Translations under genes and position numbers: made by a program
DNA from: Candidatus Omnitrophota bacterium
GTDB taxonomy: Bacteria; Omnitrophota; Gorgyraeia; VGKH01
Assembly: GCA_022703055.1 (NCBI GenBank)
Contig: JAKLEP010000003.1
Location: forward strand, 86,238-150,237
Direction: 5' to 3'
Length of the DNA: 64,000 nt
The notes under the pieces: model-generated
Database searches by the model: none
The model's input: the letters and a program-made list of their open reading frames with translations, nothing else
What the model was told of the DNA's origin: nothing
In this document: in pieces, positions 11,799 through 64,000 of the stretch
Position numbering within the stretch: the stretch's first letter is position 1
Layout: each line of letters begins with the position of its first letter

Positions 11799-14243
11799 TT
11801 ATTGATAACGAATCCTTCCCCCACCAGTTGTCGTACGCGCCGGATTAGTCTGTGTTCCGGTCGTGGTTGTCGAAGACTGAGTCGTTGAAGTTGCGGTCGT
11901 TGCTTGCGTCGCCGTTGCCTGTGCTTGGATTATTGTTGGCGCAATAGGCTTAGTTAAGAAATTACCGCGTTTTGAACGTGCAGTCAAAGTCAGACCGCTG
12001 ATTTTGGCTGCAGGAATTGTTTTAGTGATAGTGTTGATGTTTGTGATTTCAATCGGTTGATTCGCAGCCTGCTGCTGCGGTCTAATCTGGTCTGCATCAT
12101 AACTTGTAGCCCGGACCGTTGTTGTCGCCGAAGGAATCTGGTCGCCTTTTTCTAAGACATATTTCTGGAATTCTTCTGAACGCGGATATTTGTTCCAGGT
12201 TAAAACATAGGTGTTGTTTGCCCCATGCGTTGCCGTAAAATTCCAGTCAATGCTTGAGCCAAACAAAACAAAATCATGAAGCGCAGTTTGAGTTTCAGTT
12301 CCGTTTTGGTCAAGAACCTTAATTTTAATTTTATATAAACCTGCAGGGAGATTAATCTGGTGAATCGAAATCCCATAGGCTGTACCTGTGTTAGCATGTA
12401 AATCTCGGTCCGGAATCCAACTGGTAGTTTTTAGCTGCGAACTTGGTGTATAATATTCCAAGGCTGCGGAAGAAATCTGCCTATCGACACTAAACACTAC
12501 TTCAATAGTCTCAGAATTAAACTGAGATATCTTAGCATTGGATATCGTAGGAGGTTTAACTAACATCTGGGTAGTTACTGGATAAATTCCCGCCCACCTA
12601 TGATTGGCATCAAGCGATGACGACCAAACTTCTTTTTTGCTTGTGTCTCTTGGCCCATAAGGCTTAAAGACTATGGGAAAAATCGGCCGCCAATTTGCAT
12701 TTTGGATCTGGGACAAAGTCATGCCGTATCCCAGCCAATCGCCAGCCAACCCTTCGCCTGCGGCAAACTGTTTGCTGAAATCTATCCCTTTTAATAAGCC
12801 GAGTATCGCTACCTCGCCGGTTAATCCAGACAGCTTTTTGCCTCCAAGCAGGCGCTGCAGTTCTGAAGGCTTCAGCATCATAATCTTGGTAGTAATCACT
12901 GAATTGTATAATGGACCGTTGATGGATGCCAAGAGATCATTAAATTTCGCCTGATTATTCCAGGCATCCCTCCATGTCGCTTCCGACGGAGGATTGCCGA
13001 TATCGGACATGATTTCATTGAATGTTGCCTGCGGGAAAAGCTGCTGGGTTACCTCAGCCGACCAAACCTGGTTAAAAGAGGTTTTGTCCATACCCAGAGT
13101 TAGCTTTAAAAGCGCATTAGTTACATCATCAGTAATTTCCGCGCGCTCTTCAGGCGTCAATCCGATAGCATCCAAAGCCGCTTCAATCTGCGCCCGGTTT
13201 GACGCAACATTCTCTCCTAAATATCTGGTCACGCTCGGCCAGCCTAACATGTCAAAGAAATATGTTAGAGACCACATCCCCAGATAATCGCCCAACGAAC
13301 CAATCATACCCTTGTTTAGCTCCATTACATCTTTGATTGCCCTCTTATTTGCCTCCATCCAGCCAGGAGTTTGTGAAGAGGTAGATTTAAAACCGTTGGA
13401 CAAATCATCGTACCAATAGGCATCGCGGGTCTTATGCGGCGCTGTCATTCCACTTCCCACATTTATGCCTGTTTGGCTGACAGTGCCATAATCAATCTCG
13501 TCTTTATGGGGAAGTTTTTCAAAATATAACCTGGCGAATTTTGAAATTACCGGGTTCATCCCATAAGAAACCGCAGTCTGATTCAAAATCAGAGTATTGA
13601 GCACAAAGTCATTTGGGATATCTATAGCGCTTGAAGAAAGCGTGATACGCTTATCCAGAGTATTTTCTACTGCCATATGTTTGGCGATGACTTGAAGGTT
13701 ATTTGTGGGGTTGGCCTTGATTTCCGCTAACCCGGGAAATGCCTTTCCGGCATAGGTGTTCACCCAGTCATGCGCCCACATGTCGCCGGCTGCGTGGGAA
13801 AAATACCCGAAGGTAAATGCCCAAGCCTGGCGCTTTGGATTATCAGAAGCCATATAGCCAACTTTGACGCCCGGAGGCGTTGGTAAGGCAGTTGCGTTAT
13901 ACGCAGGAAGATTATTCCAGAGAAGTACCAGATACGGATTCGTATTGGGGTGGATGTAGGTCTGTCCGGTCCAGAAATCAGGAAATCCGTCGGGTCCGAT
14001 GGATCCGCCGCGAAAGTAATTCGGGCAAAGCTTGATTGCCTCAGCTACCTCTGGCCTTACCTCAAATTCTCCATAAGGCGGAATCCAGACTTTGCCGTCT
14101 CTGGCATCATCCATGACTATATTGGCAATGTAGGCGTGGGTTTTGAGCTTCCATGCGAAAGCTGGCGTAGAGAAAGAAAAAATGATAGATAAAATGATAA
14201 AGAATAGAATTTGGATTTTGGCACGCTTAACCAAGCTGATCAT
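11799..14243 (-). CDS. Secreted zinc-dependent phospholipase C / P1-nuclease-fold protein with C-terminal beta-rich domains and a Thr/Gln-rich tail
   Basis: The signal peptide ends in PAFA, followed by WKLKTH, so the mature N-terminus is a Trp as in Zn-PLC/P1 nucleases. GGSIGPDGFPD and SHAAGDMWAHDWVN are His/Asp metal-ligand-like motifs. 814 aa. The tail reads ATATQATTATSTTQSSTTTTGTQT. Confidence 0.6.
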   Translation of the reverse strand: MISLVKRAKIQILFFIILSIIFSFSTPAFAWKLKTHAYIANIVMDDARDGKVWIPPYGEFEVRPEVAEAIKLCPNYFRGGSIGPDGFPDFWTGQTYIHPNTNPYLVLLWNNLPAYNATALPTPPGVKVGYMASDNPKRQAWAFTFGYFSHAAGDMWAHDWVNTYAGKAFPGLAEIKANPTNNLQVIAKHMAVENTLDKRITLSSSAIDIPNDFVLNTLILNQTAVSYGMNPVISKFARLYFEKLPHKDEIDYGTVSQTGINVGSGMTAPHKTRDAYWYDDLSNGFKSTSSQTPGWMEANKRAIKDVMELNKGMIGSLGDYLGMWSLTYFFDMLGWPSVTRYLGENVASNRAQIEAALDAIGLTPEERAEITDDVTNALLKLTLGMDKTSFNQVWSAEVTQQLFPQATFNEIMSDIGNPPSEATWRDAWNNQAKFNDLLASINGPLYNSVITTKIMMLKPSELQRLLGGKKLSGLTGEVAILGLLKGIDFSKQFAAGEGLAGDWLGYGMTLSQIQNANWRPIFPIVFKPYGPRDTSKKEVWSSSLDANHRWAGIYPVTTQMLVKPPTISNAKISQFNSETIEVVFSVDRQISSAALEYYTPSSQLKTTSWIPDRDLHANTGTAYGISIHQINLPAGLYKIKIKVLDQNGTETQTALHDFVLFGSSIDWNFTATHGANNTYVLTWNKYPRSEEFQKYVLEKGDQIPSATTTVRATSYDADQIRPQQQAANQPIEITNINTITKTIPAAKISGLTLTARSKRGNFLTKPIAPTIIQAQATATQATTATSTTQSSTTTTGTQTNPARTTTGGGRIRYQ

Positions 14244-14255
14244 TTTTTTCTCCTT

Positions 14256-15518
14256 TTATTCAACTGCATCCCTTCCCGGAGGCGATTTTCGCCAGGAATA
14301 TCCTTCGGACGCCTCTTTAAATCCTAGGTTAAAGAGGTCTATCATTTCTTTCCGGTCAAATAATTCCTTGGGCCTGGTAATATGCGTTGCCGGGATATAG
14401 GCGAGGTTAAAATCGCCGTTTCCGTCCTTGTTAAACATATACAGCTGGTAAAGATCGCCCACGCTCTGAGAATTGGTTATGGCATCAACAGTGCGCTCGG
14501 CGATAGGAATCATCTTATCCGGCACTTCCTTATATACCGGGTCGACATAGCCGTTTCTAATCACGTAAATCTGGAATTTGATCCTTCTTGTATCAATACC
14601 TTTTTCTTTGATCGCCTTATCAAAACCCTTAAGTACATCATGTAGGAAAAATACCTGATGGATCAGCCCGCCGTCGACATGCATCTCATCATAAACATTA
14701 TTTGCAAGTTCGGCTTTAAAATAAACCGGCGGAAAGGCAATGGGCATGGATGATGATGCCAGGATAATTTTACGGAATAATTCCTGCGATTTCTCATCGC
14801 CAACCGAAGCAATCTTACCCATGTCCCAGACTACCATGCGGTCTGCATCTAGATTAGTAGTTCCGATGTAGAGCCTGCGGCCTTTTTTATATTCGGCTGC
14901 CACAGCATCAATAAATTTAGCGTCAAAATACTTCTCAAGCAGCCTCTCTAATGGCCAGCTATCAGCTATAGAATTGCTGAAAGGGATCCTGATACGGGGA
15001 TTGCGCAGGCGGATAATATCTTTAGTGGAATACGAAGTATAAAATTCCTTTAATTTATCGTCATAATCCGGGCCCATAAAAGCAAGTGGCGCGATTACGG
15101 CGCCAGTGCTGATACCGGTGATAATTTTAAAAACAGGCCGTGAACCGGATTTGGTCCAGCCGCATAAAAGCCCTGCCCCGTAGGCGCCGTTAGCCGAGCC
15201 TCCTGAAATCGCCAGCATTGAATAGGTCTTTACGGATTTAAAATCAAAAAATGAGAATCCCTCTTTTTCTTCCTGTTCCAACAGAGAGATAAAATCGTTT
15301 TTGAAGGTATCGCTTGGCTCGCCGCTTATTGCCCGGATATCCTGCAGGCCAGAGATCTTGACGTGCGGCAATAATTCAAGCGGTGTGGCGTGGCGTGCAG
15401 TGGCGCATCCACTCAAAAAAAGGAAAAATGACAACAATATCAAAATATGTATTTTTGATCTATGATGCATTCTTTTAAGAGGGTCGCCCCATCGCAAATG
15501 TTTTTTGAGATGGGGCAC
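14256..15518 (-). CDS. Patatin-like phospholipase, lipoprotein
   Basis: Oxyanion motif GGSANGAYGAG, nucleophile motif GISTG (GxSxG) and the catalytic Asp in VDGGL. Lipobox is FLSGC. The true start may be MHHRSK at 15470. Confidence 0.8.
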   Translation of the reverse strand: MPHLKKHLRWGDPLKRMHHRSKIHILILLSFFLFLSGCATARHATPLELLPHVKISGLQDIRAISGEPSDTFKNDFISLLEQEEKEGFSFFDFKSVKTYSMLAISGGSANGAYGAGLLCGWTKSGSRPVFKIITGISTGAVIAPLAFMGPDYDDKLKEFYTSYSTKDIIRLRNPRIRIPFSNSIADSWPLERLLEKYFDAKFIDAVAAEYKKGRRLYIGTTNLDADRMVVWDMGKIASVGDEKSQELFRKIILASSSMPIAFPPVYFKAELANNVYDEMHVDGGLIHQVFFLHDVLKGFDKAIKEKGIDTRRIKFQIYVIRNGYVDPVYKEVPDKMIPIAERTVDAITNSQSVGDLYQLYMFNKDGNGDFNLAYIPATHITRPKELFDRKEMIDLFNLGFKEASEGYSWRKSPPGRDAVE

Positions 15519-15546
15519 AAACAGGTAATACTCATATAAAATAAAT

Positions 15547-15879
15547 CTATTTATTAATTTTATTTAATTCTTTTTCTGCTTCTCGCTGCTTCTTTTTTGC
15601 TTCTTGCTCAGCTTTTCTTTTAGCCTTTTCTGCTTCTCTTTGGGCTTTCTTTCTGGCCTTCTCTGCTTCTCTCTGCTTCTTCTCGGCTTCCATCTTTGCT
15701 TGTTTTTCCGCTTTTCGAGCTTCTACTTCTGTCTGCTGTGAAGTTTTCTTAGCCTCAATCTTAGCTTTCTTGGCATCCTTTTCCAAACCACCTAAATGCA
15801 GTCCTTTATTTTCGGCAAAAATAAACCGCGGCGATAAAATCAAAGTTATGGCAAAAAGCAATATAACCAACTTTTTCAT
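15547..15879 (-). CDS. Secreted Lys/Glu/Ala-rich repeat protein (function unknown)
   Basis: AAGGAGG sits just upstream of the internal ATG at 15879 (MKKLVILLFAITLIL signal). Repeated EAEKxxKKAQREAEKA units are present. Confidence 0.4.
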   Translation of the reverse strand: MKKLVILLFAITLILSPRFIFAENKGLHLGGLEKDAKKAKIEAKKTSQQTEVEARKAEKQAKMEAEKKQREAEKARKKAQREAEKAKRKAEQEAKKKQREAEKELNKINK

Positions 15880-15942
15880 TTCGCCTCCTTTTTTCTTTGC
15901 GTCTTCTCGCAACATCCCACCCCATTTCTCCCGTTCGCTGTT

Positions 15943-16479
15943 CTATTTTAAATACGCTCTAATAATTTTCTGTTCAAAAAGCGGTTTGTCCATCGGTCCA
16001 GTGGCCGCATTTTCAATCGCCTCAACCACGTCATAGCCTGAAACTACTTCGCCGAAAATCGTATGTTTCATATTCAGATGCGGCGTAGGAACAGTCGTAA
16101 TGAAAAACTGGCTGCCGTTGGTGTTGGGACCGGCATTGGCCATGGCCAAGATTCCTGCTTTATCAAATTTAACATTGGCCTTAACTTCATCCTCGAATTT
16201 TCCTCCCCAGAGCGACTGTCCGCCGCGACCGGTTCCGGTAGGATCCCCACCCTGAATCATGAAACCCTTGATTACACGATGAAAAATCGTCCCGTCATAA
16301 TAGCCCTTTTTTACCAAGCCGATGAAATTTTCGCAGGTCTTCGGCGCTATGTTAGGCATAAGTTTTAACTCGATATTCCCTTGATTGGTTTCTAAAATCA
16401 CGTTTTGCCCTCCTTGTCCTGGCATTTGTGAGCACCCGGCGATAAAAGCGAAAGTAAGTAAAATCAATAACACTTTCAT
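15943..16479 (-). CDS. Cyclophilin-type peptidyl-prolyl cis-trans isomerase, lipoprotein
   Basis: [15 protein letters not shown] and GSQFFIT motifs; lipobox IAGC. Confidence 0.9.
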
Positions 16480-16492
16480 AGCCTTCCTCCTT

Positions 16493-19129
16493 TTATTTTA
16501 ATTCTTTGATAACTTTCTTGAGCTTATTGATTTTATCTTCCAGCTCCAGCGATTTTTGTTTCTCGCTTGCCACCACATCTTTGGGAGCCTTGGATAAGAA
16601 TTGTTTGTTTTTAAGGCGTGCGTTGAGATTCTTCAGGATATTTTCATTTTGTGCGATAAGACTTGATATGCGGTTTTTTTCCTTTTCAATGTCAATTAAT
16701 CCAGCTAAAGGAACAAAAAAACTCACCCTCCCCACAACGCCGGCAACTGAATCCTTTGGTCGGGCGATTTCTTTTTCAATGGTTAGGTTTTCTATCTTGG
16801 CCAAATTTTGGATGATACCTTTATTCTCGTCGAGCAATTTGCCTGATTGTGTATCAGCGGTTTTCAAAATCACATTGATTTTCTCAAGCGGCGGGATATT
16901 CCATTCTGCGCGGATATTCCGAACCGCACTTACCAAATCGATAACCAACTGCATCTGGGACTCAGCCTTTTTATCAATCATCTGTTTTTGTAAATGCGGA
17001 ATACTCTGGAGCATAATCGAGCCGGATTCGGGAGCTAATTTCTGCCAGATTTCTTCGGTAATAAACGGCATAAACGGATGTAAAAGCCGTATTGATTTCT
17101 CCAACACTTTGTAAATTAGAATCTGGATATTCTTATCCGAGATTCTGTCTTTTACGATTTCCAGATACCAGTCGCAAAACTCATGCCAGAAAAATTCGTA
17201 TAGCAAATTCTCAGCTTCGTTAAATGAATAGGTTTCGATGGCTTTATTGACTTTATCAATCGTGGTATAAAGTCGGGATAAAATCCAACGGGATGCTAAA
17301 TCCAATTTTTCCTTTTGGTAAACCTGGCAAAGGTCAGATTCAGCGCTCTTCTCTTTTAGGTTCATCAATACAAAACGCGATGCATTCCAGATTTTATTGG
17401 CGAAGTTTCTACCAACCTCAAATTTTTCTTTTGATAAGAATAAATCCTGGCCACTGTTTATAATCAAGCTGAAACGCAGAGCGTCGGTGCCAAATTCGTT
17501 GATAATATCCAAGGGATCGATGGCATTACCCAAAGACTTTGACATCTTTAAGCCTTTTGAATCGCGTACAGTTCCGTGGATGTAAACATCACTAAACGGG
17601 ATTTCTTTTTTAAACTCCATCCCGGCCATTATCATGCGCGCCACCCAGAAAAAAATGATTTCCGGAGCAGTGATTAGAACGCTGGTGGGATAAAAATACC
17701 TTAAGTCTTCTGATTCTTTCGGCCAATAGAAAGTAGCAAACGGCCATAACCACGACGAGAACCATGTATCCAGAACGTCATCTTCCTGTCTTAGATTACG
17801 AGAATGGCATTTTGGACACTCGGCCGGAGCATTCTGCGAAACGATAATATTATCTGGATCTTTACAATCCTGACAATACCAGACGGGAATTCTGTGGCCC
17901 CACCAGATCTGCCGTGAGATACACCAGTCCTGGATATTTTCCATCCAATTTAGATAAACTTTGGTCCAGCGGCTGGGAGTAAATCTGATTTTGCCTTTTT
18001 TGACCACATCAATCGACGGCTTTGCCAATGGCTTCATCTTTACAAACCATTGCTTAGACAAATACGGCTCAACGATTGTATGGCAGCGATAACAATGGCC
18101 GACAGCATGATCATGGTCAGTGGTTTTTTCTAAGAGATTCCTTTCCTCTAATTCCTCCAAAATCGCTTCGCGGGCTTCAAATCTATCCATACCCATAAAC
18201 TCACCGGCATTCTCATTCAATTTGGCGTCGGGTTGCATGATATTTACGAATTCTAATTTATGGCGCTTACCGATTTCAAAATCATTGGGATCATGCGCTG
18301 GCGTAACCTTTACTGCACCAGTTCCAAATTTAGGATCCACTACAGAATCAGCGATGATTTTGATCGGCCGCTCCATCAAAGGTAAAATCAAAGTTTCACC
18401 AATAAGATTCTTATAGCGTTTGTCCTTAGGATTAACTGCCACGGCAGTATCGCCAAGCATAGTTTCCGGGCGGGTCGTAGCAACAACTACAAATTTGTTA
18501 GGATCATCTTTGAAAGGATACTTTATATAATAGAGTTTGCCTTTTAAATCTTTATGCTGGGCTTCTTCATCTGACAAAGCAGTTTGACAGCGCGGGCACC
18601 AGTTGATAATATATTTCCCCCGATAGATTAATCCTTTTTCATAAAGATGAATAAAGACTTCTTTTACGGTATTGGAATAATCCTCATCCATGGTAAAGCG
18701 AGTGCGCGGCCAATCGCAGGCGCTCCCGAGCTTTTTTAACTGATGGATAATCGTATCGCCGTATTTATTCTTCCACTGCCATAATCGTTCATTGAATTTT
18801 TCTCGACCCAAATCCTGTCGAGTTTTTCCTTCTTGGGCGAGTTCTCTCTCTACGACGTTTTGAGTAGCAATCCCAGCATGATCAACTCCCGGCATCCAGA
18901 GCGATTCGTATCCATGCATCTTTTTATAGCGGATTAAAATATCCTGCAGAGTATTATTAAGGGCATGGCCCATATGCAGGATTCCAGTGACATTCGGCGG
19001 CGGGATTACAATACAGAACGGTTTCTTTTTAGGATTAGCTTTAGCGGCGAATAGATTCTTCTCTTGCCAAAAATTATAGATTCTATCTTCCGTATCTTTG
19101 GGATTGTAACGCGGGGCGAGCTCTGTCAT
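16493..19129 (-). CDS. valS: Valine--tRNA ligase
   Basis: 878 aa. [14 protein letters not shown] (HIGH) and KMSKS motifs, plus a C-terminal coiled coil. Confidence 0.95.
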
Positions 19130-55274: not shown

Positions 55275-58200
55275 CTATTTCTGCTTCTCTTTTTCCTTTT
55301 GTTTTTCCTCTAAGATCCGGTTGGTGATTTCTTGGGGAACCTGGGTATATTTATCAAATTTCATCGAGGCATGGACATGGCCGCTGGTAAGCGATCGGAA
55401 TGCCGAAGCATAACCAAACATTTCAGACAATGGCGCCTCGGCCAAAATCAATTTCTGATTGCCTTTGGATTCCATATTCATGACCTTGCCTCGGCGCGAA
55501 AATATATATCCGGTAATATTGCTGGCATATTCTTCGGGAACATTTATTTCAAGCGCCATGGTCGGCTCCAGTAACACCGGATTACATTTCATAAATCCAG
55601 CTCTAAAACCCCCCATCGCCGCCAACTTAAATGCGATATCTGATGAATCAACTTCATGATACGAACCATCGACAAGATTTACTTTCACGTCAGTGACCGG
55701 ATATCCTGCCAAGACTCCCCGCTGCATCTGTTCTTTGAGCCCTTTTTCCACCGAGGGGATAAAATTCTTTGGGATTGCCCCGCCTTTAATACTATCAATG
55801 AATTCGAATTCTGTCCCGCGCTCACCCGGAGAAATCTCAAAGACAACATGCCCGTATTGGCCGCGTCCGCCGGATTGCTTGACGTGCTTGTATTCTTCGG
55901 TCACCGAACCTAGGATAGTTTCCTTGTAAGCGACCTTGGGACGCCCCACTTCCGGCTGGACATTGAATTCGGTTTTTAATCTATCGACAATAATCTCAAG
56001 ATGCAACTCGCCCATTCCCATGATCACGGTTTCCTTGGTATCCTCGTCGGTGCGCACCAGAAACGTGGGATCTTCTTCCATCAATTTTGCTAAACCTTTA
56101 CCCAATTTGTCCTGTTCTGAGCGGCTCTGCGGCGCGATACTGATTGATACAACCGGCGTGGGAAATTCTATGGCTTCAAGCAGAATCGGCTTCTTCAATG
56201 AACACAGCGTATCGCCGGTAATGGTATGATTCATCCCGATTAATGCCACGATATCCCCGGCAAAAGCCACATCCACTGCCTCACGCTGGTTGGCATGCAT
56301 GCGGAAAATCCTTGAGACTCTTTCCTTTTTATCCTTGCGGCTGTTTAAGATATAAGTTCCATTACGCAGATATCCGGAATAAATCCTGACATAAACCAGT
56401 TTTCCCATGTGCGGGTCAGCCTGGACCTTAAAGGCAAATCCCACAAAGGTATTTTTATAATCCGGCGGGACTTCGATTTCCACGCTGGGATCATCAGCGT
56501 CATGGGCTTTGACCGCCGGTAAATCAACCGGCGAGGGAAGATACGCGATAACAGCATCCAAAAGATTCTGTACGCCCTTATTTTTCAGCGCTGCTCCGCA
56601 AAGAAGCGGCACCATTTTATTAGCGATAGTTCCCCGGCGGATAGCCGCAACTAATTCCTCTTTAGAAATAGAATCCTTGGCTTCCAGGTATTTATTCATT
56701 AACGACTCATCGTGGGTTGCGATTTTCTCAATCAAGATATGGCGATATTTATCGGCTTCGGCTTTTAAATCTTCCGGGATTTCTTCAATTTTGATTTCTT
56801 TGCCCTGAGTCTCTTCGTCATAAATGCATGCCCGCATTTCCAATAAATCAATTACCCCGCGGAATTTATCTTCAGCCCCGATGGGGATCTCAAGCGGAAG
56901 GACATTTGCCTGGAACTTATCTTCGATATCTTTGACCACGCCAAAGAAATTTGCGCCCATGCGGTCCATCTTATTTATAAATGCGATTTTGGGCACGTGA
57001 TATTTGTCGGATTGCCTCCAGACCGTCTCTGACTGAGCTTCTACGCCGCTTACCGCGTCAAAAACCGCAACCGCCCCGTCTAGAACTCTCAGGCTTCGCT
57101 CAACCTCGACTGTAAAATCAACGTGGCCCGGAGTATCGATAATCGTAATCCTGTTATCCTTCCACTGGCAGGTGGTGGCGGCCGCTGTAATGGTGACGCC
57201 TCTTTCCTGCTCCTGCTTCATCCAATCCATGGTCGCTTCGCCATTGTGGACTTCACCAAGTTTATGGGATCGTCCGGTATAAAATAAAATCCTCTCGGTC
57301 AAAGTAGTTTTGCCGGCGTCGATATGCGCCATAATCCCGATGTTTCTGGTTGTTTTGACATCAACCTGAGGCTCAGGCAATGGCTCTTCTTTTTCAGGCT
57401 CTTCTTCTTTTTTCTCGACGACAGGAGCTTCTTGCGGAACTGGAGGCTGTTCTGCTTCCGAGGCCTCGATCGGCTCAGCTGGCGCTTCAACTGGCGGCAC
57501 TTCAACTAATGGAGTTTCAGCCGCAGGGGGTTGCTCTGCGACTGGCGGCGCTTCCTCAATTGGCTTTTCAACTTCAGGAAGCGCCGCCCCTTCGATCTTT
57601 GCCTTATTCTTTAAAACCAATATTTCTTCCTCTAATTCTTTTATCTTATGGTCTTTTGACTCAATGAGCGCTTTTTTGGTTTCAAACTGGTTTTTGATGT
57701 CCTCAAATTCTTCTTTGAATTCTTCGAATTGAATCTCAAGCTTCTTGTGGAATTCAGCAGAAACCCAGCCGCTTTCCTCTTTGGCTTTTTTCATCTTATT
57801 GATGGTTGCAGTATGTTCCTTGATTTCTTTCTGGCGGGTCTTGACCTCTTCGATATATTTCTCTATCTGGGTCTTTAGGCTAAAAACTTCTTCAGAGAGC
57901 TCTTTATTTTTCTTTTCTTCGTTCTCCAGCTCAGTTCTTACATTATGCAATTCTGCAGCCAGCTGTACATTCTTTGAGAATTCATTGCTTACCTCTTGCT
58001 CTTTCTTATGCAGTTCATTCTGGAAGCCGATGCTTCTCTGGTCTGAATTCTTGGCGATCTCGTCGGCTTTTTTCAGCCATTCTTCGCGCTTGGCCAATTC
58101 ATCCAATAACTGCTTCTCTTTTTCTTGCGCACTGTCGGAGATTTTCTTTATAGCCTGGTAATCAACCTTTAATTTCTCCAGCTCCTGGCGATAGGCATTG

Positions 58201-58376
58201 GCCTGGCCCTGGTATTTGGTGATTTCTTTCTCTTCCTGGGCAGGATCAATCTTGATTACCCGGTTTAGAGACGGCCTGGGTTTTTGGGCTTTAGTGTCTT
58301 TTTCAAACAAGGCGACGTAAAAGAAGTAAAGCGCGCCTGCGATTGCCACAAAAGCCATAAAAAAAGTTGCTTCCAT
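55275..58376 (-). CDS. fusA: Elongation factor G with an N-terminal extension of about 333 aa (TM helix, long K/E coiled coil, P/E/A-rich linker)
   Basis: Residues about 344-1033 form a complete EF-G: [28 protein letters not shown] and YHEVDSS. Residues 1-343 are in frame with no stop and include [20 protein letters not shown], heptad-like K/E-rich sequence and [37 protein letters not shown] and ATG are at 58376. Confidence 0.85.
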
Positions 58377-58421
58377 ATTCTCCTCTGAATAAATAACAGT
58401 AATTACTTATTTTGTGTGATT

Positions 58422-58449
58422 ATTATAGCAGAACCACGAAAGTTTTCAA
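58422..58449 (-). promoter_or_regulatory. Sigma70-like promoter TTGAAA-16 nt-TATAAT upstream of the EF-G fusion
   Basis: Minus strand reads TTGAAA (58449..58444), a 16-nt spacer, and TATAAT (58427..58422). That places it about 45 nt before the ATG. Confidence 0.45.
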
Positions 58450-59342: not shown

Positions 59343-60152
59343 CTATTTTTGGCGTAAAAACTCGAAAAACAGGGAATCAATCTTCTGGTGCAGATCATCG
59401 GGGATATCCTGGCACTGCAGGGCATTGGTGATTTCTATCGCCTTATCATAAGTATGCAAAAAGGCGCTGCATTTAGGGCAATCCTTGATGTGGCTATCGA
59501 AATAATCGGCCTTTTCCTTATCTAAGTGGCCGCGGGCATAATCATAGACAAAACCGGTAAGCTCCTGGCAGTGGTTGGAGGGCTTATGGAGCTTTTCTTC
59601 CTTGTCCTTGTAATAATCGATAATATGGGATTTAATCATCAGAATTGAGCGATGAATCCTGGTCTTCAGTGAATTAAGCTTCAAATCCAGGATTTCTGCC
59701 ACTTCTTCCAGCGGCATGCCTTCGATAAAATGCAGCAAAAGCGGCATGCGGTACTGGATGGGCATTTCGCTGATGGTATCATCCAGGCGAGCCTTAAACT
59801 CCTCATCCAGAAGATGCTTATCGCCTCTCTCCGGCCAGTTCACGTAAAGGCCCACGCGCCGGTCCTTGGTTGAGCGCCTAAGGCTGTTGGCGATATTAAA
59901 CTGGCTGTATCTTTTCCTTAATAGCATCAGCGCCTCGTTGTAGGCGATTTTGTAAATCCAGGTGGAAAGCTTGGATTGCTGGCGGAAACTATCCAGGTTA
60001 TTCATTATCTTGATGATGGTATTCTGGGTGATGTCTTCGGCGTCGCGGTCATTGCCGGATAGCCCCAAGGCCAGGCGGTAGATTTTACCTTTGTATTGCT
60101 TGTAGATTTCCTCGATATTTTCCTTGGTGGGCATGGCTTTATTATTACACAA
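59343..60152 (-). CDS. ECF-type sigma-70 factor fused to a C-terminal zinc-finger anti-sigma (ZAS, zf-HC2) domain
   Basis: Region 2 is DAEDITQNTIIKIM...WIYKIAYNEALMLLRK. Region 4 is LEEVAEILDLKLNSLKTRIHRS. These are followed by CQELTGFVYDYARGHLDKEKADYFDSHIKDCPKC (C...HxxxCxxC). No TM segment is present. An alternative start MPTKEN lies at 60134. Confidence 0.8.
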   Translation of the reverse strand: MCNNKAMPTKENIEEIYKQYKGKIYRLALGLSGNDRDAEDITQNTIIKIMNNLDSFRQQSKLSTWIYKIAYNEALMLLRKRYSQFNIANSLRRSTKDRRVGLYVNWPERGDKHLLDEEFKARLDDTISEMPIQYRMPLLLHFIEGMPLEEVAEILDLKLNSLKTRIHRSILMIKSHIIDYYKDKEEKLHKPSNHCQELTGFVYDYARGHLDKEKADYFDSHIKDCPKCSAFLHTYDKAIEITNALQCQDIPDDLHQKIDSLFFEFLRQK

Positions 60153-62147: not shown

Positions 62148-62669
62148 TTAGGGCTTGGGTAAACCTAAGAAATCAAAAGGTATTTCATTAAAGAAATAAT
62201 AACAACCGACTGATTTCACAAATTCAAGAACGTCTTTATATTCGTTCTTGGCGAACCAATCATTTAGAACATAGACGTATTTAACGGTTATATTTAGTGG
62301 GGCGAGAAGTTTCTGGTATTGTTTGTTTTTGAAATCGCAAGTCTGAAGTTTCTCATCTACAGATCCGGAAACTTCTTGAAATTTAATCTCAACAATAAAT
62401 AGAGTATTGTTGCTAAAAATAAATATCGCGTCATCTGGAAGCAATTTTTTGGAAATAAGTTTCTTATAATCAACACCTTTGGGCTCAAGTAGATTCTTGT
62501 ATAATTTGTTTTTTGTGTAAAATCTGGCGACTTCCTGGCTTTTAAAATAAACGATGTCTCCGGAAATAGAGTATTCAGGCAATGCCTTGATAACCTCTTC
62601 TAAGGGTTTTCTTGACTCAAAATGCAATCCAGTGGCAGTATGGCTGCCTCCCTTTCCGCCCTTTTTCAT
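62148..62669 (-). CDS. PD-(D/E)XK-type nuclease candidate (putative restriction endonuclease subunit)
   Basis: LLPDDAIFIFSNNTLFIVEIKFQ gives a PD...ExK arrangement. 173 aa. It lies in an AT-rich block downstream of the methyltransferase. Confidence 0.5.
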   Translation of the reverse strand: MKKGGKGGSHTATGLHFESRKPLEEVIKALPEYSISGDIVYFKSQEVARFYTKNKLYKNLLEPKGVDYKKLISKKLLPDDAIFIFSNNTLFIVEIKFQEVSGSVDEKLQTCDFKNKQYQKLLAPLNITVKYVYVLNDWFAKNEYKDVLEFVKSVGCYYFFNEIPFDFLGLPKP

Positions 62670-62701
62670 AAAAGATCCTTTTTGTTTCTAATGAATTTTA
62701 T

Positions 62702-63256
62702 TTAAATATTTCTTATGCCTTCCATAAACATATTCCGGCCCGACCAATTCCAGTATCTTATATCTTGTTCAATAAAGAACCATTTTACGATTTTCAAGAT
62801 TAATTCATTCGATAATCCTTGGTTCAATGAAACTAAATGCTGTATATATCTAGAATATATATCATCGGGATCATTGCAATAAAAAACTTCTTCCAAAGCC
62901 TCTACTAACTTATTATACGCTTGCGCATTAAGCTGTTTTTTATTTTGTAAATCTTGCTTTATATCATCGTGCTTAGGATTATCTTTGCCATTCATAAAAA
63001 TATAATTTTCCACATGAACAATAAAATCAAACCCTTTATTCAAAGGAACTGGCCTTGTTAAATATACTTTTTCTCCAGAAGACAAAGTCTCAACAATATA
63101 TTTATATTTAGAAGTTTCTTCACCTTTTCCTCGCCCCGCGCTTTCACGTATAAAAGTATCGATAACAATTTTTCTTAAATTGTTCCTATTCTCTTCGTGG
63201 TTCTCAGATATTTCTGAAAGCTTTGCTGTCAAATTTATTGTTGGATGCAATACCAT
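62702..63256 (-). CDS. Hypothetical protein between the methyltransferase and the nuclease candidate (possible R-M component)
   Basis: 184 aa. I could assign no confident motif; the role is suggested by context only (13-nt and 32-nt gaps to its neighbours). Confidence 0.35.
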   Translation of the reverse strand: MVLHPTINLTAKLSEISENHEENRNNLRKIVIDTFIRESAGRGKGEETSKYKYIVETLSSGEKVYLTRPVPLNKGFDFIVHVENYIFMNGKDNPKHDDIKQDLQNKKQLNAQAYNKLVEALEEVFYCNDPDDIYSRYIQHLVSLNQGLSNELILKIVKWFFIEQDIRYWNWSGRNMFMEGIRNI

Positions 63257-63269
63257 AAAGGGGCTTCCT

Positions 63270-64000
63270 TTACAACTTCTCTTTAAAGGCGTCTTTTAGT
63301 CTCTTAACAGAAACTTCAAGATATTTCTTTTCAAGCTCAATACCGATATATTTTCTTCCTTGCGAAAAAGCCGAGACGCCTGTCGTGCCGCTGCCGTTAA
63401 AAGGATCAAGGACAATATCGTTTCGCTTTGTTGAGGCAAGGATAATCCTGTTTAAGAGCGCAAGCGGTTTTTGGGTGGGGTGTTTTCCGTAAATTTTCTC
63501 TCCATTTTTTGGCGGGTATATTTCCCAGAAACTCTTCATTTGTTTTCCGCCGGCCATTTCTTTCATCAATGTATAATTGAATAAATGTCGACTATGTTTA
63601 TTTTTGGCTGCCCAGATAATTGTTTCAGTTGAATGGGTAAAATAACGACAGCTTAAATTTGGCGGCGGGTTTATCTTAAACCAGGAAATATCGTTTAATA
63701 TCTTAAAACCTAATTGCTGCATAGCATAACCGACGGAAAAAATAATATGCGAAGTCCCAGAAACCCAAATTGTTCCGTCCGTAGTTAATACTCTTTGGCA
63801 GGCAGAAAGCCATTGTTTATTAAATTCGTGATTAGCCTCGGGACCTTGAGATTTATCCCATTCGCCCTTGTTTACCGAAACCATTCTGCCGGCATGACAA
63901 GTTATTCCGCCATTTGAGAGAAAATAAGGTGGATCAGCAAAAATCATATCTATGGAATTCTCGGGAATTTGAGCGAGGATATTTAAGCAATCTGCTTTGT
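63270..64000 (-). CDS. Beta-class N6-adenine (or N4-cytosine) DNA methyltransferase, DpnA/M.MboIB/HinfI-like; 5' end lies beyond the window
   Basis: Motif IV DPPY (IFADPPYFLSNGG) precedes motif I (DPFNGSGTTG), which is the beta-class order. NLSCRYFTHSTETI and GKHPTQKP are also present. The frame stays open to 64000 (...KADCLNILAQIPENSIDMIF). Confidence 0.9.
   Translation of the reverse strand, partial: KADCLNILAQIPENSIDMIFADPPYFLSNGGITCHAGRMVSVNKGEWDKSQGPEANHEFNKQWLSACQRVLTTDGTIWVSGTSHIIFSVGYAMQQLGFKILNDISWFKINPPPNLSCRYFTHSTETIIWAAKNKHSRHLFNYTLMKEMAGGKQMKSFWEIYPPKNGEKIYGKHPTQKPLALLNRIILASTKRNDIVLDPFNGSGTTGVSAFSQGRKYIGIELEKKYLEVSVKRLKDAFKEKL

Follow-up and report, generated by a model that had tools for sequence, protein, structure and literature searches.

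A long form of elongation factor G with a predicted membrane anchor and coiled-coil rod in Omnitrophota

Bacterial elongation factor G (EF-G, FusA) is canonically a soluble protein of about 700 amino acids (aa), and the elongation factors of translation are regarded as proteins that diffuse freely in the cytoplasm. Here we report a gene for a long form of EF-G in a 64,000-nucleotide (nt) stretch of a Candidatus Omnitrophota bacterium (assembly GCA_022703055.1, contig JAKLEP010000003.1, positions 86,238 to 150,237; the whole stretch is hereafter called the window). The gene is a single uninterrupted open reading frame (ORF) of 1033 aa on the minus strand (55275..58376), with its ATG at 58376 and its stop at 55275. 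The product does not match the usual EF-G form, because a predicted transmembrane (TM) anchor, a rod and a leash precede the EF-G body. The gene is preceded by genes for an ABC-F protein, a sigma factor and a rhodanese and is followed by gatCAB. An initial annotation, made from the sequence alone, had described the undivided frame, this gene context, a set of start signals of its own for the long form, an N-terminal hydrophobic helix, a Pro/Glu/Ala-rich spacer and a complete EF-G with intact motifs; the window gene map and the analyses below bear out all of these. The features of the gene, in the direction of transcription, are as follows.

58422..58449, minus strand: sigma-70-like promoter, TTGAAA-16-TATAAT with an extended -10 TG (consensus scan, 11 of 12 positions)
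58380..58385, minus strand: Shine-Dalgarno (SD) sequence GAGGAG, 3 nt before the ATG (direct reading of the sequence)
58305..58376, minus strand: start codon and signal-anchor TM helix, aa 1-24, predicted N-out/C-in (hydropathy, charge, AlphaFold2)
58239..58304, minus strand: basic, disordered juxtamembrane segment, aa 25-46 (predicted local distance difference test, pLDDT, below 50)
57774..58238, minus strand: coiled-coil helix 1, aa 47-201, about 23 nm, containing W100 (single AlphaFold2 helix, pLDDT 77-88)
57756..57773, minus strand: conserved kink 'SGWVSA', aa 202-207 (AlphaFold2 helix break)
57594..57755, minus strand: helix 2, aa 208-261, about 8 nm (AlphaFold2 helix)
57363..57593, minus strand: acidic, Pro/Glu-rich disordered leash, aa 262-338, including a TTG at 57380..57378 (pLDDT 32-48)
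55275..57362, minus strand: complete canonical EF-G body, aa 339-1033 and stop, with G domain including G' and domains II, III, IV and V (Pfam, TIGR00484, AlphaFold2)

Promoter-like hits in the region were overall not above chance, so that the promoter is to be read as a consensus match only. An SD-like motif of at least 4 nt precedes the long ATG in 22 of 48 long-form genes.

The EF-G body carries all five domains (GTP_EFTU with G', D2, EFG_III, EFG_IV and EFG_C) at aa 342-1020, with Pfam E-values of 1e-19 to 1e-66, and the window protein scores 1018.3 bits on the EF-G equivalog model TIGR00484 (cutoff 659.4). Elsewhere, long forms score 1010-1060 bits and normal-length (short) forms 1069-1082 bits on this model, and both pass. 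The motifs are G1 AHIDAGKTT (aa 350-358), DTPGH (414-418), NKMD (468-471) and YHEVDSS at the tip of domain IV (906-912). Across 95 homologs G1, G3 with its catalytic His, G4 and the domain IV tip are invariant or nearly so; the tip residues H907, V909, D910, S911 and S912 are invariant in the 95 long forms. The models for EF-G2 and EF-G-like proteins stayed below their cutoffs (NF009377, 501.5 vs 890; NF058620, 485.4 vs 1000; NF009892, 187.9 vs 640), as did the tetracycline ribosomal protection model NF012153 (384.3 vs 775) and the models for RF3, LepA and BipA. The body scores about 820 bits each against the EF-G chains of Staphylococcus aureus and Thermus thermophilus, 367 bits against Thermus EF-G-2 and 498 bits against mitochondrial RRF2 (RRF2mt). 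The AlphaFold2 body, with pLDDT mostly above 85, superimposes on S. aureus EF-G (3zz0; Foldseek) with a template modelling score of 0.96 and a root-mean-square deviation of 2.1 A. The ratio of nonsynonymous to synonymous substitution rates for the body is about 0.05-0.06 between the window protein and its two closest relatives. This conservation is consistent with a catalytically competent body and with ribosome-dependent GTPase and translocation activity; because the catalytic body is intact and strongly constrained, the protein is better read as an active factor than as a passive anchor.

The extension ahead of the body comprises about 335 residues in the window protein and 324 ± 22 aa across 118 homologs, with the same layout in 118 of the 121 best homologs, much more than chance would give. 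An AlphaFold2 monomer model from a 95-sequence alignment (mean pLDDT 81.5) places a helix at aa 2-24, disorder at 25-46, a continuous helix at 47-201, a break at 202-207, a further helix at 208-261 and disorder at 262-338, followed by EF-G. The first helix is hydrophobic (Kyte-Doolittle 19-residue mean 2.23; pLDDT 80-85). Its counterpart begins at residue 0-9 in the homologs and exceeds a mean of 1.6 in 103 of 118; the 15 at or below this value look like mis-called starts. Mean net charge across the homologs is -0.08 before the helix and +1.97 over the 20 residues after it, and the juxtamembrane segment (23 ± 11 aa) has a mean net charge of +1.8. Ordinary signal peptides in the same window, in contrast, have K/R ahead of their hydrophobic core. 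With no charge before the helix and a net positive charge after it, the helix is a predicted N-out/C-in signal anchor that would place EF-G on the cytoplasmic side of the membrane.

Hydrophobicity averaged over the alignment of aa 47-201 has its peak at a period of 3.50 (power 98.6, as against 57 for the 99th percentile of shuffled sequences and 2.2 at a period of 3.60), whereas helix 2 alone gave a period of 3.55 that was not significant. The K/E-rich, heptad-like stretch that had been read from the sequence thus stands for aa 47-201 but not for helix 2 taken separately. The spacing between W100 and F133 is 33 residues in 95 of 95 sequences; that between F133 and W204 is 64 or 71, all 34 deviations being +7; and between W204 and L255 eight of ten deviations are +7 or +14. 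Indels in the rod preserve the heptad register, and aa 47-201 form a true, register-coherent coiled coil of about 23 nm. W100 is invariant, and L62, L94, K110, K125, E128, F133, K158, E203, W204 and K207 are conserved in at least 90% of sequences. Against the two closest relatives the proportion of nonsynonymous differences in the helical domain (0.23-0.29) lies far below that of synonymous differences (0.72-0.89), and the frame of this domain is therefore under purifying selection. Both a TM and a coiled-coil prediction, which had been proposed as checks, were thus obtained from hydropathy and charge, heptad periodicity and AlphaFold2 helices.

Known relatives of the extension were sought by profile. 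Residues 1-340 had no Pfam match and, in NCBIfam, only sub-threshold coiled-coil noise of the SMC/Rad50 kind; PDB profile matches had E-values of 0.0016 or weaker and concerned generic coiled coils, with no solved homolog of the module. Membrane coiled-coil scaffolds examined by name (EzrA, the N-terminus of RNase Y, DivIVA and SMC-like proteins) gave no significant profile match. One long form (P0026, 1172 aa) has a partly duplicated helical module with two 'R..W' motifs, and hence a longer rod.

The leash is disordered at aa 262-338 in the window protein and measures 86 ± 15 aa (range 50-126) across homologs, with 23% E, 17.5% P, 12% A and 10% K and a net charge of -0.13 per residue. Its sequence is poorly conserved, yet its reading frame is open in all of them. 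Six related long forms (P0009, P0012, P0014, P0015, P0021 and P0028) have in common a leash insert that is not of Pro/Glu type, 'PPMALAIGSQTMVSRPIEQP', which is conserved among them and absent elsewhere. In a geometric estimate the rod contributes 23 + 8 nm, and the leash has a contour length of 28 nm and a root-mean-square extension of about 5-7 nm. The rod would probably be a parallel homodimer, and the working reach of the EF-G head may be about 30-45 nm (at most about 65 nm); 30-45 nm would take in, by volume, 66-83% of a sphere with a radius of 100 nm.

The long form is conserved. Among the 120 top-ranking protein clusters, 117 have lengths of 975-1172 aa and align over 93-100% of the query at 53-63% identity. 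The other three are NCBI records; one of them, P0001 (701 aa), matches the C-terminal two thirds of the window protein with 100% identity. A long form that starts with a TM helix was present at 49 of the 80 loci from genomes and at 41 of the 80 from metagenomes (about 90 in total). Two independent metagenome-assembled genomes (MAGs), GCA_035389665.1 and GCA_028686955.1, both of the species seen in the window, carry an ORF identical to that of the window; a chimeric join, raised beforehand together with a lost stop codon as a point to be checked, is thereby excluded, and the open frame at the other loci rules out the latter as well. In relatives on long contigs the upstream gene terminates a few bases before the long ATG. 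The search of relatives that had been recommended found the same extension in one clan of Omnitrophota EF-Gs. Orthologs that encode the two parts as separate genes were not seen; the stand-alone relatives of the extension described below form a distinct paralogous family and do not lie beside fusA (three loci). The architecture is real, conserved, selected as a protein and of single origin.

Several records of long forms have been shortened by annotation. NCBI places P0001, P0002, P0005 and the gene at L092 at 698-797 aa, having chosen an internal TTG or ATG; an unannotated 0.8-1.3 kb precedes each of these genes and contains an open in-frame extension ending in a TM helix. For the records in the short clusters the frame is open for 279-346 codons upstream, and its first ATG gives proteins of 1033-1034 aa with a hydrophobic helix at the start. 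The error is systematic: because of it routine surveys miss the architecture, and in protein databases long paralogs cannot be told from short ones. The full extents of the genes concerned are as follows.

L005, 8993-12097: long EF-G gene shortened by NCBI
L006, 836-3937: long EF-G gene shortened by NCBI
L007, 2231-5332: long EF-G gene shortened by NCBI
L008, 1324-4425: long EF-G gene shortened by NCBI
L092, 13692-16847: long EF-G gene shortened by NCBI

The in-frame TTG at 57380..57378, from which the initial annotation had conceived a second isoform of normal length, is present and is the NCBI start of the identical protein P0001 (701 aa). It has no SD sequence. More than half of the long genes (26 of 49) lack any ATG, GTG or TTG in the stretch 5-40 codons ahead of G1; such a codon is accompanied by an SD-like motif in only 6, and in the long genes that have candidate starts their positions scatter. 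The junction reads ..P.P(K/R)(I/F).L(E/D)K(V/T)RNIGI, is continuous with the leash and has no Met conserved at the canonical EF-G start. Since no internal start is conserved, the idea of two isoforms fails as a conserved mechanism. In relatives the short protein comes from a separate gene.

A scan with the EF-G body over one genome per species gave 80 loci, with 49 long forms, 27 genuinely short forms and 6 cut by contig ends. The short EF-Gs, of 694-711 aa, begin with 'M.R...L.KVRNIGI', and a stop codon lies immediately ahead of this start. In the closed chromosome CP070797.1 (1.52 Mb) the gene for a 698-aa EF-G (P0446; L092 10001-12097) comes first, then genes for a SpoU methylase and a peptidoglycan-binding protein, and then that for a long form of 1051 aa (13692-16847; 797 aa in the NCBI annotation); 1.6 kb separates the two EF-G genes. 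Contig JAQVMQ010000001.1 (L088) has a long and a short EF-G gene 3 kb apart, and three assemblies have one long and one short copy each (JAHJCI01; JAVCBZ01, Candidatus Susulua stagnicola; JAIWAR01). The long form is thus a second EF-G with a predicted tether, a paralog of a soluble EF-G of about 698 aa, with which it coexists in these five relatives. The suggestion that a conventional fusA may occur elsewhere in the genome holds to this extent for the closed chromosome, the contig and the three MAGs; the genome at hand was seen as a window of 64 kb.

A neighbour-joining tree of the EF-G bodies has a single split between all long and all short forms (bootstrap 96/100); members of the short clan also come from genomes with the labels Auribacterota and PVC group. 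The long forms for which a short partner is proven occupy three deep branches of their clan, among them the sister group of the lineage in the window. In all ten of ten matched genome pairs divergence was greater for the long body than for the short one, by a factor of 1.13-1.61 (mean 1.36), and the distances among long bodies run parallel to those among short bodies. Both copies are therefore old and vertically inherited, the short one being the more constrained. The sole residue of the body that cleanly discriminates long from short forms is K975, which is Q in the short ones, and it is thus the N-terminal module that distinguishes the paralogs.

JAIWAR01 is labelled 'Methanosarcinales archaeon' and contains two Omnitrophota-type contigs of 5.1x and 5.0x coverage (JAIWAR010000004.1, L058; JAIWAR010000002.1, L076), one with the long EF-G and the other with the short one; either the bin is contaminated, or an epibiont of a methanogen was binned together with it. 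A third, divergent gene of the EF-G subfamily lies at L046 18571-20505, 8 kb from a long form. It encodes 644 aa with the P-loop GHAQSGKTT, is 39% identical and scores 650 on TIGR00484, just below the cutoff, so that some Omnitrophota have at least three EF-G-family genes.

The position of the gene outside an rpsL-rpsG-fusA-tuf (str) operon had been pointed out in the initial annotation. No genes for S12, S7 or EF-Tu were found within 10 kb of long loci or of Omnitrophota-type short loci, the latter including 41 of 41. As a positive control, the 14 weakest metagenome matches lie in S12-S7-EF-G-EF-Tu operons; exact-match source names assign these contigs to Spirochaetia and Ignavibacteria. Because the short EF-G genes also lie outside such operons, the argument is uninformative, and the absence is ruled out as evidence for a special role. 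An S12-S7-EF-G-EF-Tu operon has been reported on some Omnitrophota chromosomes (2026 preprint 10.64898/2026.06.07.730766); it could hold the short copy or a further one, and a third, str-operon EF-G in Omnitrophota is neither confirmed nor excluded.

The module also occurs without EF-G. A profile of the helical domain had 314 matches among 1.84 billion representative proteins; many of them are contig-end fragments of long EF-Gs, and there is a distinct stand-alone family of about 210-236 aa (P0298, P0334, P0335 and more than 190 others, such as P0226), which belongs to Omnitrophota by NCBI names. Its members are homologous to aa ~45-230 of the window protein (profile E-values 1e-10 to 1e-22) and have the TM helix, the basic patch, the rod and both Trp motifs, including the 'SGWVSA' kink motif with E203 and W204. 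They end about 25 residues past the second Trp motif, with no leash, no EF-G and no match to a curated family. Their neighbourhood comprises genes for a SpoU methylase, a YfbR-like HD protein, PAS/Hpt and TPR proteins, the module protein itself, an aminotransferase, a dCMP deaminase and a response regulator; no fusA was present beside the module gene in the three loci examined. A SpoU methylase gene paired with an HD hydrolase gene is found ahead of the stand-alone gene and also ahead of one long and two short fusA genes, at seven loci only. This offers only a hint that an ancestral neighbourhood was shared and that a duplicated fusA was fused there to a copy of the module. The sites are listed below.

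L009, 10001-10699: stand-alone module gene, with SpoU site
L010, 10001-10693: stand-alone module gene, with SpoU site
L011, 10001-10663: stand-alone module gene, with SpoU site
L001, 6242-7572: SpoU gene site (at all these sites usually with HD)
L075, 7755-9779: SpoU gene site
L084, 1418-2736: SpoU gene site
L092, 12196-12915: SpoU gene site

Three weak matches to the profile (P0179, P0217 and P0218) begin with a TM helix, continue in repeated coiled-coil units and end in MshEN and PilZ (cyclic di-GMP-binding) domains. Their likeness to the module is probably coiled-coil similarity only; the layout is likewise that of a membrane-anchored rod with a cargo.

In the full-text literature we found no description of an EF-G with a TM or coiled-coil extension, nor of a membrane-tethered EF-G, be it in Omnitrophota (Omnitrophica) or elsewhere, in agreement with the remark in the initial annotation that none was known. 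As far as this literature shows, the variant is undescribed, and it is widespread in one large Omnitrophota clade. The window protein shares with canonical EF-G (FusA of T. thermophilus, S. aureus and Escherichia coli) the five domains, the G motifs, the domain IV tip and the predicted fold, but adds the anchor, rod and leash and belongs to a family that forms a second copy beside a normal-length EF-G. Specialised paralogs such as EF-G2 of Thermus and Bacteroides, spdEFG1/2, and mtEFG1 with mtEFG2/RRF2 are also duplicated EF-Gs with a presumed division of labour. They are soluble and have divergent bodies, whereas the body described here is canonical and the specialisation is confined to the N-terminal tether.

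RNase Y and EzrA of Firmicutes consist of an N-terminal TM helix, a helical or coiled-coil stalk and a cytoplasmic functional domain. The design logic is alike, but there is no sequence relationship, and the cargo of the window protein is a translation factor. GTPases of the translation apparatus that are localised at the membrane include FtsY, the receptor of the signal recognition particle, and LepA/EF4, with a reported membrane pool in E. coli; these bind peripherally or via amphipathic or acidic regions, and are not translocases held in place by a TM helix and a rod longer than 30 nm. An engineered N-terminal L9-EF-G chimera has been solved on the 70S ribosome (PDB 4wpo, 4wqf and others). 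Because this fusion sits on the ribosome (4wpo), an N-terminal attachment to EF-G is sterically tolerated; the chimera, however, is an artificial, soluble protein that has a short linker and lacks a membrane anchor.

On balance we favour, as somewhat probable, a reading in which the long form is an active translocase confined near the membrane by its rod and leash, alongside a soluble EF-G. The single signal-anchor helix would insert in the cytoplasmic membrane and leave the remainder inside the cell; the unbroken heptad coiled coil, probably as a parallel homodimer, would form the rod of about 23 + 8 nm; and the acidic Pro/Glu leash of about 77-86 residues would let the nearly unmodified EF-G swing freely. 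The factor could then work as an ordinary GTP-dependent translocase in a shell of about 30-45 nm (maximum about 65 nm) beneath the membrane and raise the local EF-G supply for ribosomes translating at or near it, while the separate soluble EF-G of about 698 aa would serve the bulk cytoplasm. Such a division of labour is less radical than a cell with membrane-bound EF-G alone, since a soluble paralog is present in every checkable case. Omnitrophota cells mostly have a diameter of about 0.2 um (PMC10066038), and giant proteins anchored in the membrane are numerous in the phylum (preprint 10.64898/2026.06.07.730766); small cells and giant membrane proteins are a suggestive setting for a tethered EF-G.

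Several points weigh against this reading. The TM assignment is based on hydropathy, charge bias and AlphaFold2 rather than on a dedicated predictor or an experiment. The rod may be straight or folded at the W204 kink, and its structure model is that of a monomer. Coexistence with a short EF-G is established in relatives only. Since a stand-alone family exists, the primary role of the module could differ from tethering. Because a reach of 30-45 nm covers 66-83% of a 200-nm cell, a membrane-proximal specialisation may be weak in the smallest cells. The literature yielded no transcript, peptide or fractionation evidence for a tethered EF-G, and no proteomic evidence for one was retrieved from that on V. 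archaeovorus.

The initial annotation had suggested that the protein localises or sequesters ribosomes at the membrane. In this case ribosomes would be held or positioned there as a layer, for storage or hibernation, or for partitioning at division, and translocation would not be the main function. The strictly conserved length and register of the rod, as in a spacer or ruler, fit such a role, and the likely dimer would offer two ribosome-binding heads. The catalytic and domain IV residues are nevertheless invariant, and the body experiences purifying selection nearly equal to that on the soluble paralog, where a passive anchor would be expected to lose the determinants of GTPase and translocation activity; moreover, EF-G binding to the ribosome is normally transient. 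We therefore regard this explanation as unlikely.

It is similarly doubtful that the short copy has been lost in the organism of the window, with all elongation resting on a tethered factor that reaches most of a 200-nm cell. No second EF-G was found in the window or within 10 kb on either side of the gene in the closest relatives (L012, L001), a reach of 30-60 nm would take in 66-94% of a sphere of 100 nm radius, and the gene has a near-consensus promoter and an SD sequence. However, proven short partners occur in three deep branches of the long clan, one being sister to this lineage, so that parsimony predicts retention of the short copy, and the short copy is the more constrained of the two. 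A further proposal combines elements of both: the rod as a molecular ruler that organises a sub-membrane layer of translating ribosomes, a bacterial counterpart of rough membrane with its own tethered translocase and specialised for the very long membrane-anchored proteins that are typical of Omnitrophota, the soluble copy having been lost in some lineages, possibly including that of the window. We consider this, too, improbable.

A releasable store, in which a protease would cut the Pro/Glu leash on a signal and free soluble EF-G from a membrane depot, is very unlikely. The leash is indeed long, disordered, exposed and variable in sequence, and a CtpA-type S41 protease is encoded three genes further downstream in the window, although proteases of this type are usually found in the periplasm. 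The leash, however, has no conserved cleavage motif, soluble EF-G is already supplied by a separate gene, and conservation of rod register and length would be pointless for a mere depot. We attach just as little credence to an origin of the anchor and rod in a membrane scaffold for envelope, division or secretion that recruited EF-G as a GTP-dependent switch or as a coupling to translation, possibly paired with the stand-alone paralog. The stand-alone Omnitrophota family, with the same TM helix, basic patch, rod and Trp motifs and a conserved neighbourhood of its own, speaks for it, and the conserved W100 and W204 motifs suggest a specific interface; against it, the module has no curated-family match, and the EF-G body has no sign of neofunctionalisation. 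That the true product is one of about 701 aa and the upstream 1 kb non-coding or wrongly joined, as the lengths of the NCBI records P0001, P0002, P0005 and L092 might imply, is hardly credible in view of the open in-frame extension with a TM helix upstream in each record, the roughly 90 independent open loci, selection at the protein level, heptad-preserving indels and the lack of a conserved internal start.

If the favoured reading of a membrane-confined translocase is true, the long form, a phylum-wide, vertically inherited EF-G built into the membrane by way of a rod of constrained length, would be the first example in bacteria of elongation machinery fixed in space. It would offer a direct handle on the organisation of translation in ultra-small cells and on how co-translational insertion of membrane proteins, including the giant proteins of Omnitrophota, is supported, and would let one ask how far EF-G diffusion limits elongation.

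Among the proteins of the window no general habit of tethering soluble proteins to the membrane was seen. All credible ORFs of at least 150 aa in the window (1-64000) are on the minus strand, and its approximately 50 genes are fully co-oriented; the few plus-strand ORFs are nested in longer minus-strand ORFs. The sigma factor upstream of the long EF-G gene (59343-60152, minus strand) is a protein of 269 aa that unites sigma-70 regions 2 and 4 and a C-terminal zf-HC2 anti-sigma zinc finger in one polypeptide, and its gene starts within the last 8 nt of the ABC-F gene upstream. At 62148-63947 (minus strand) a DNA methylase gene (N6_N4_Mtase) adjoins one for a protein without a family match but with a weak match to PD-(D/E)XK nucleases; the pair may be a small restriction-modification module.

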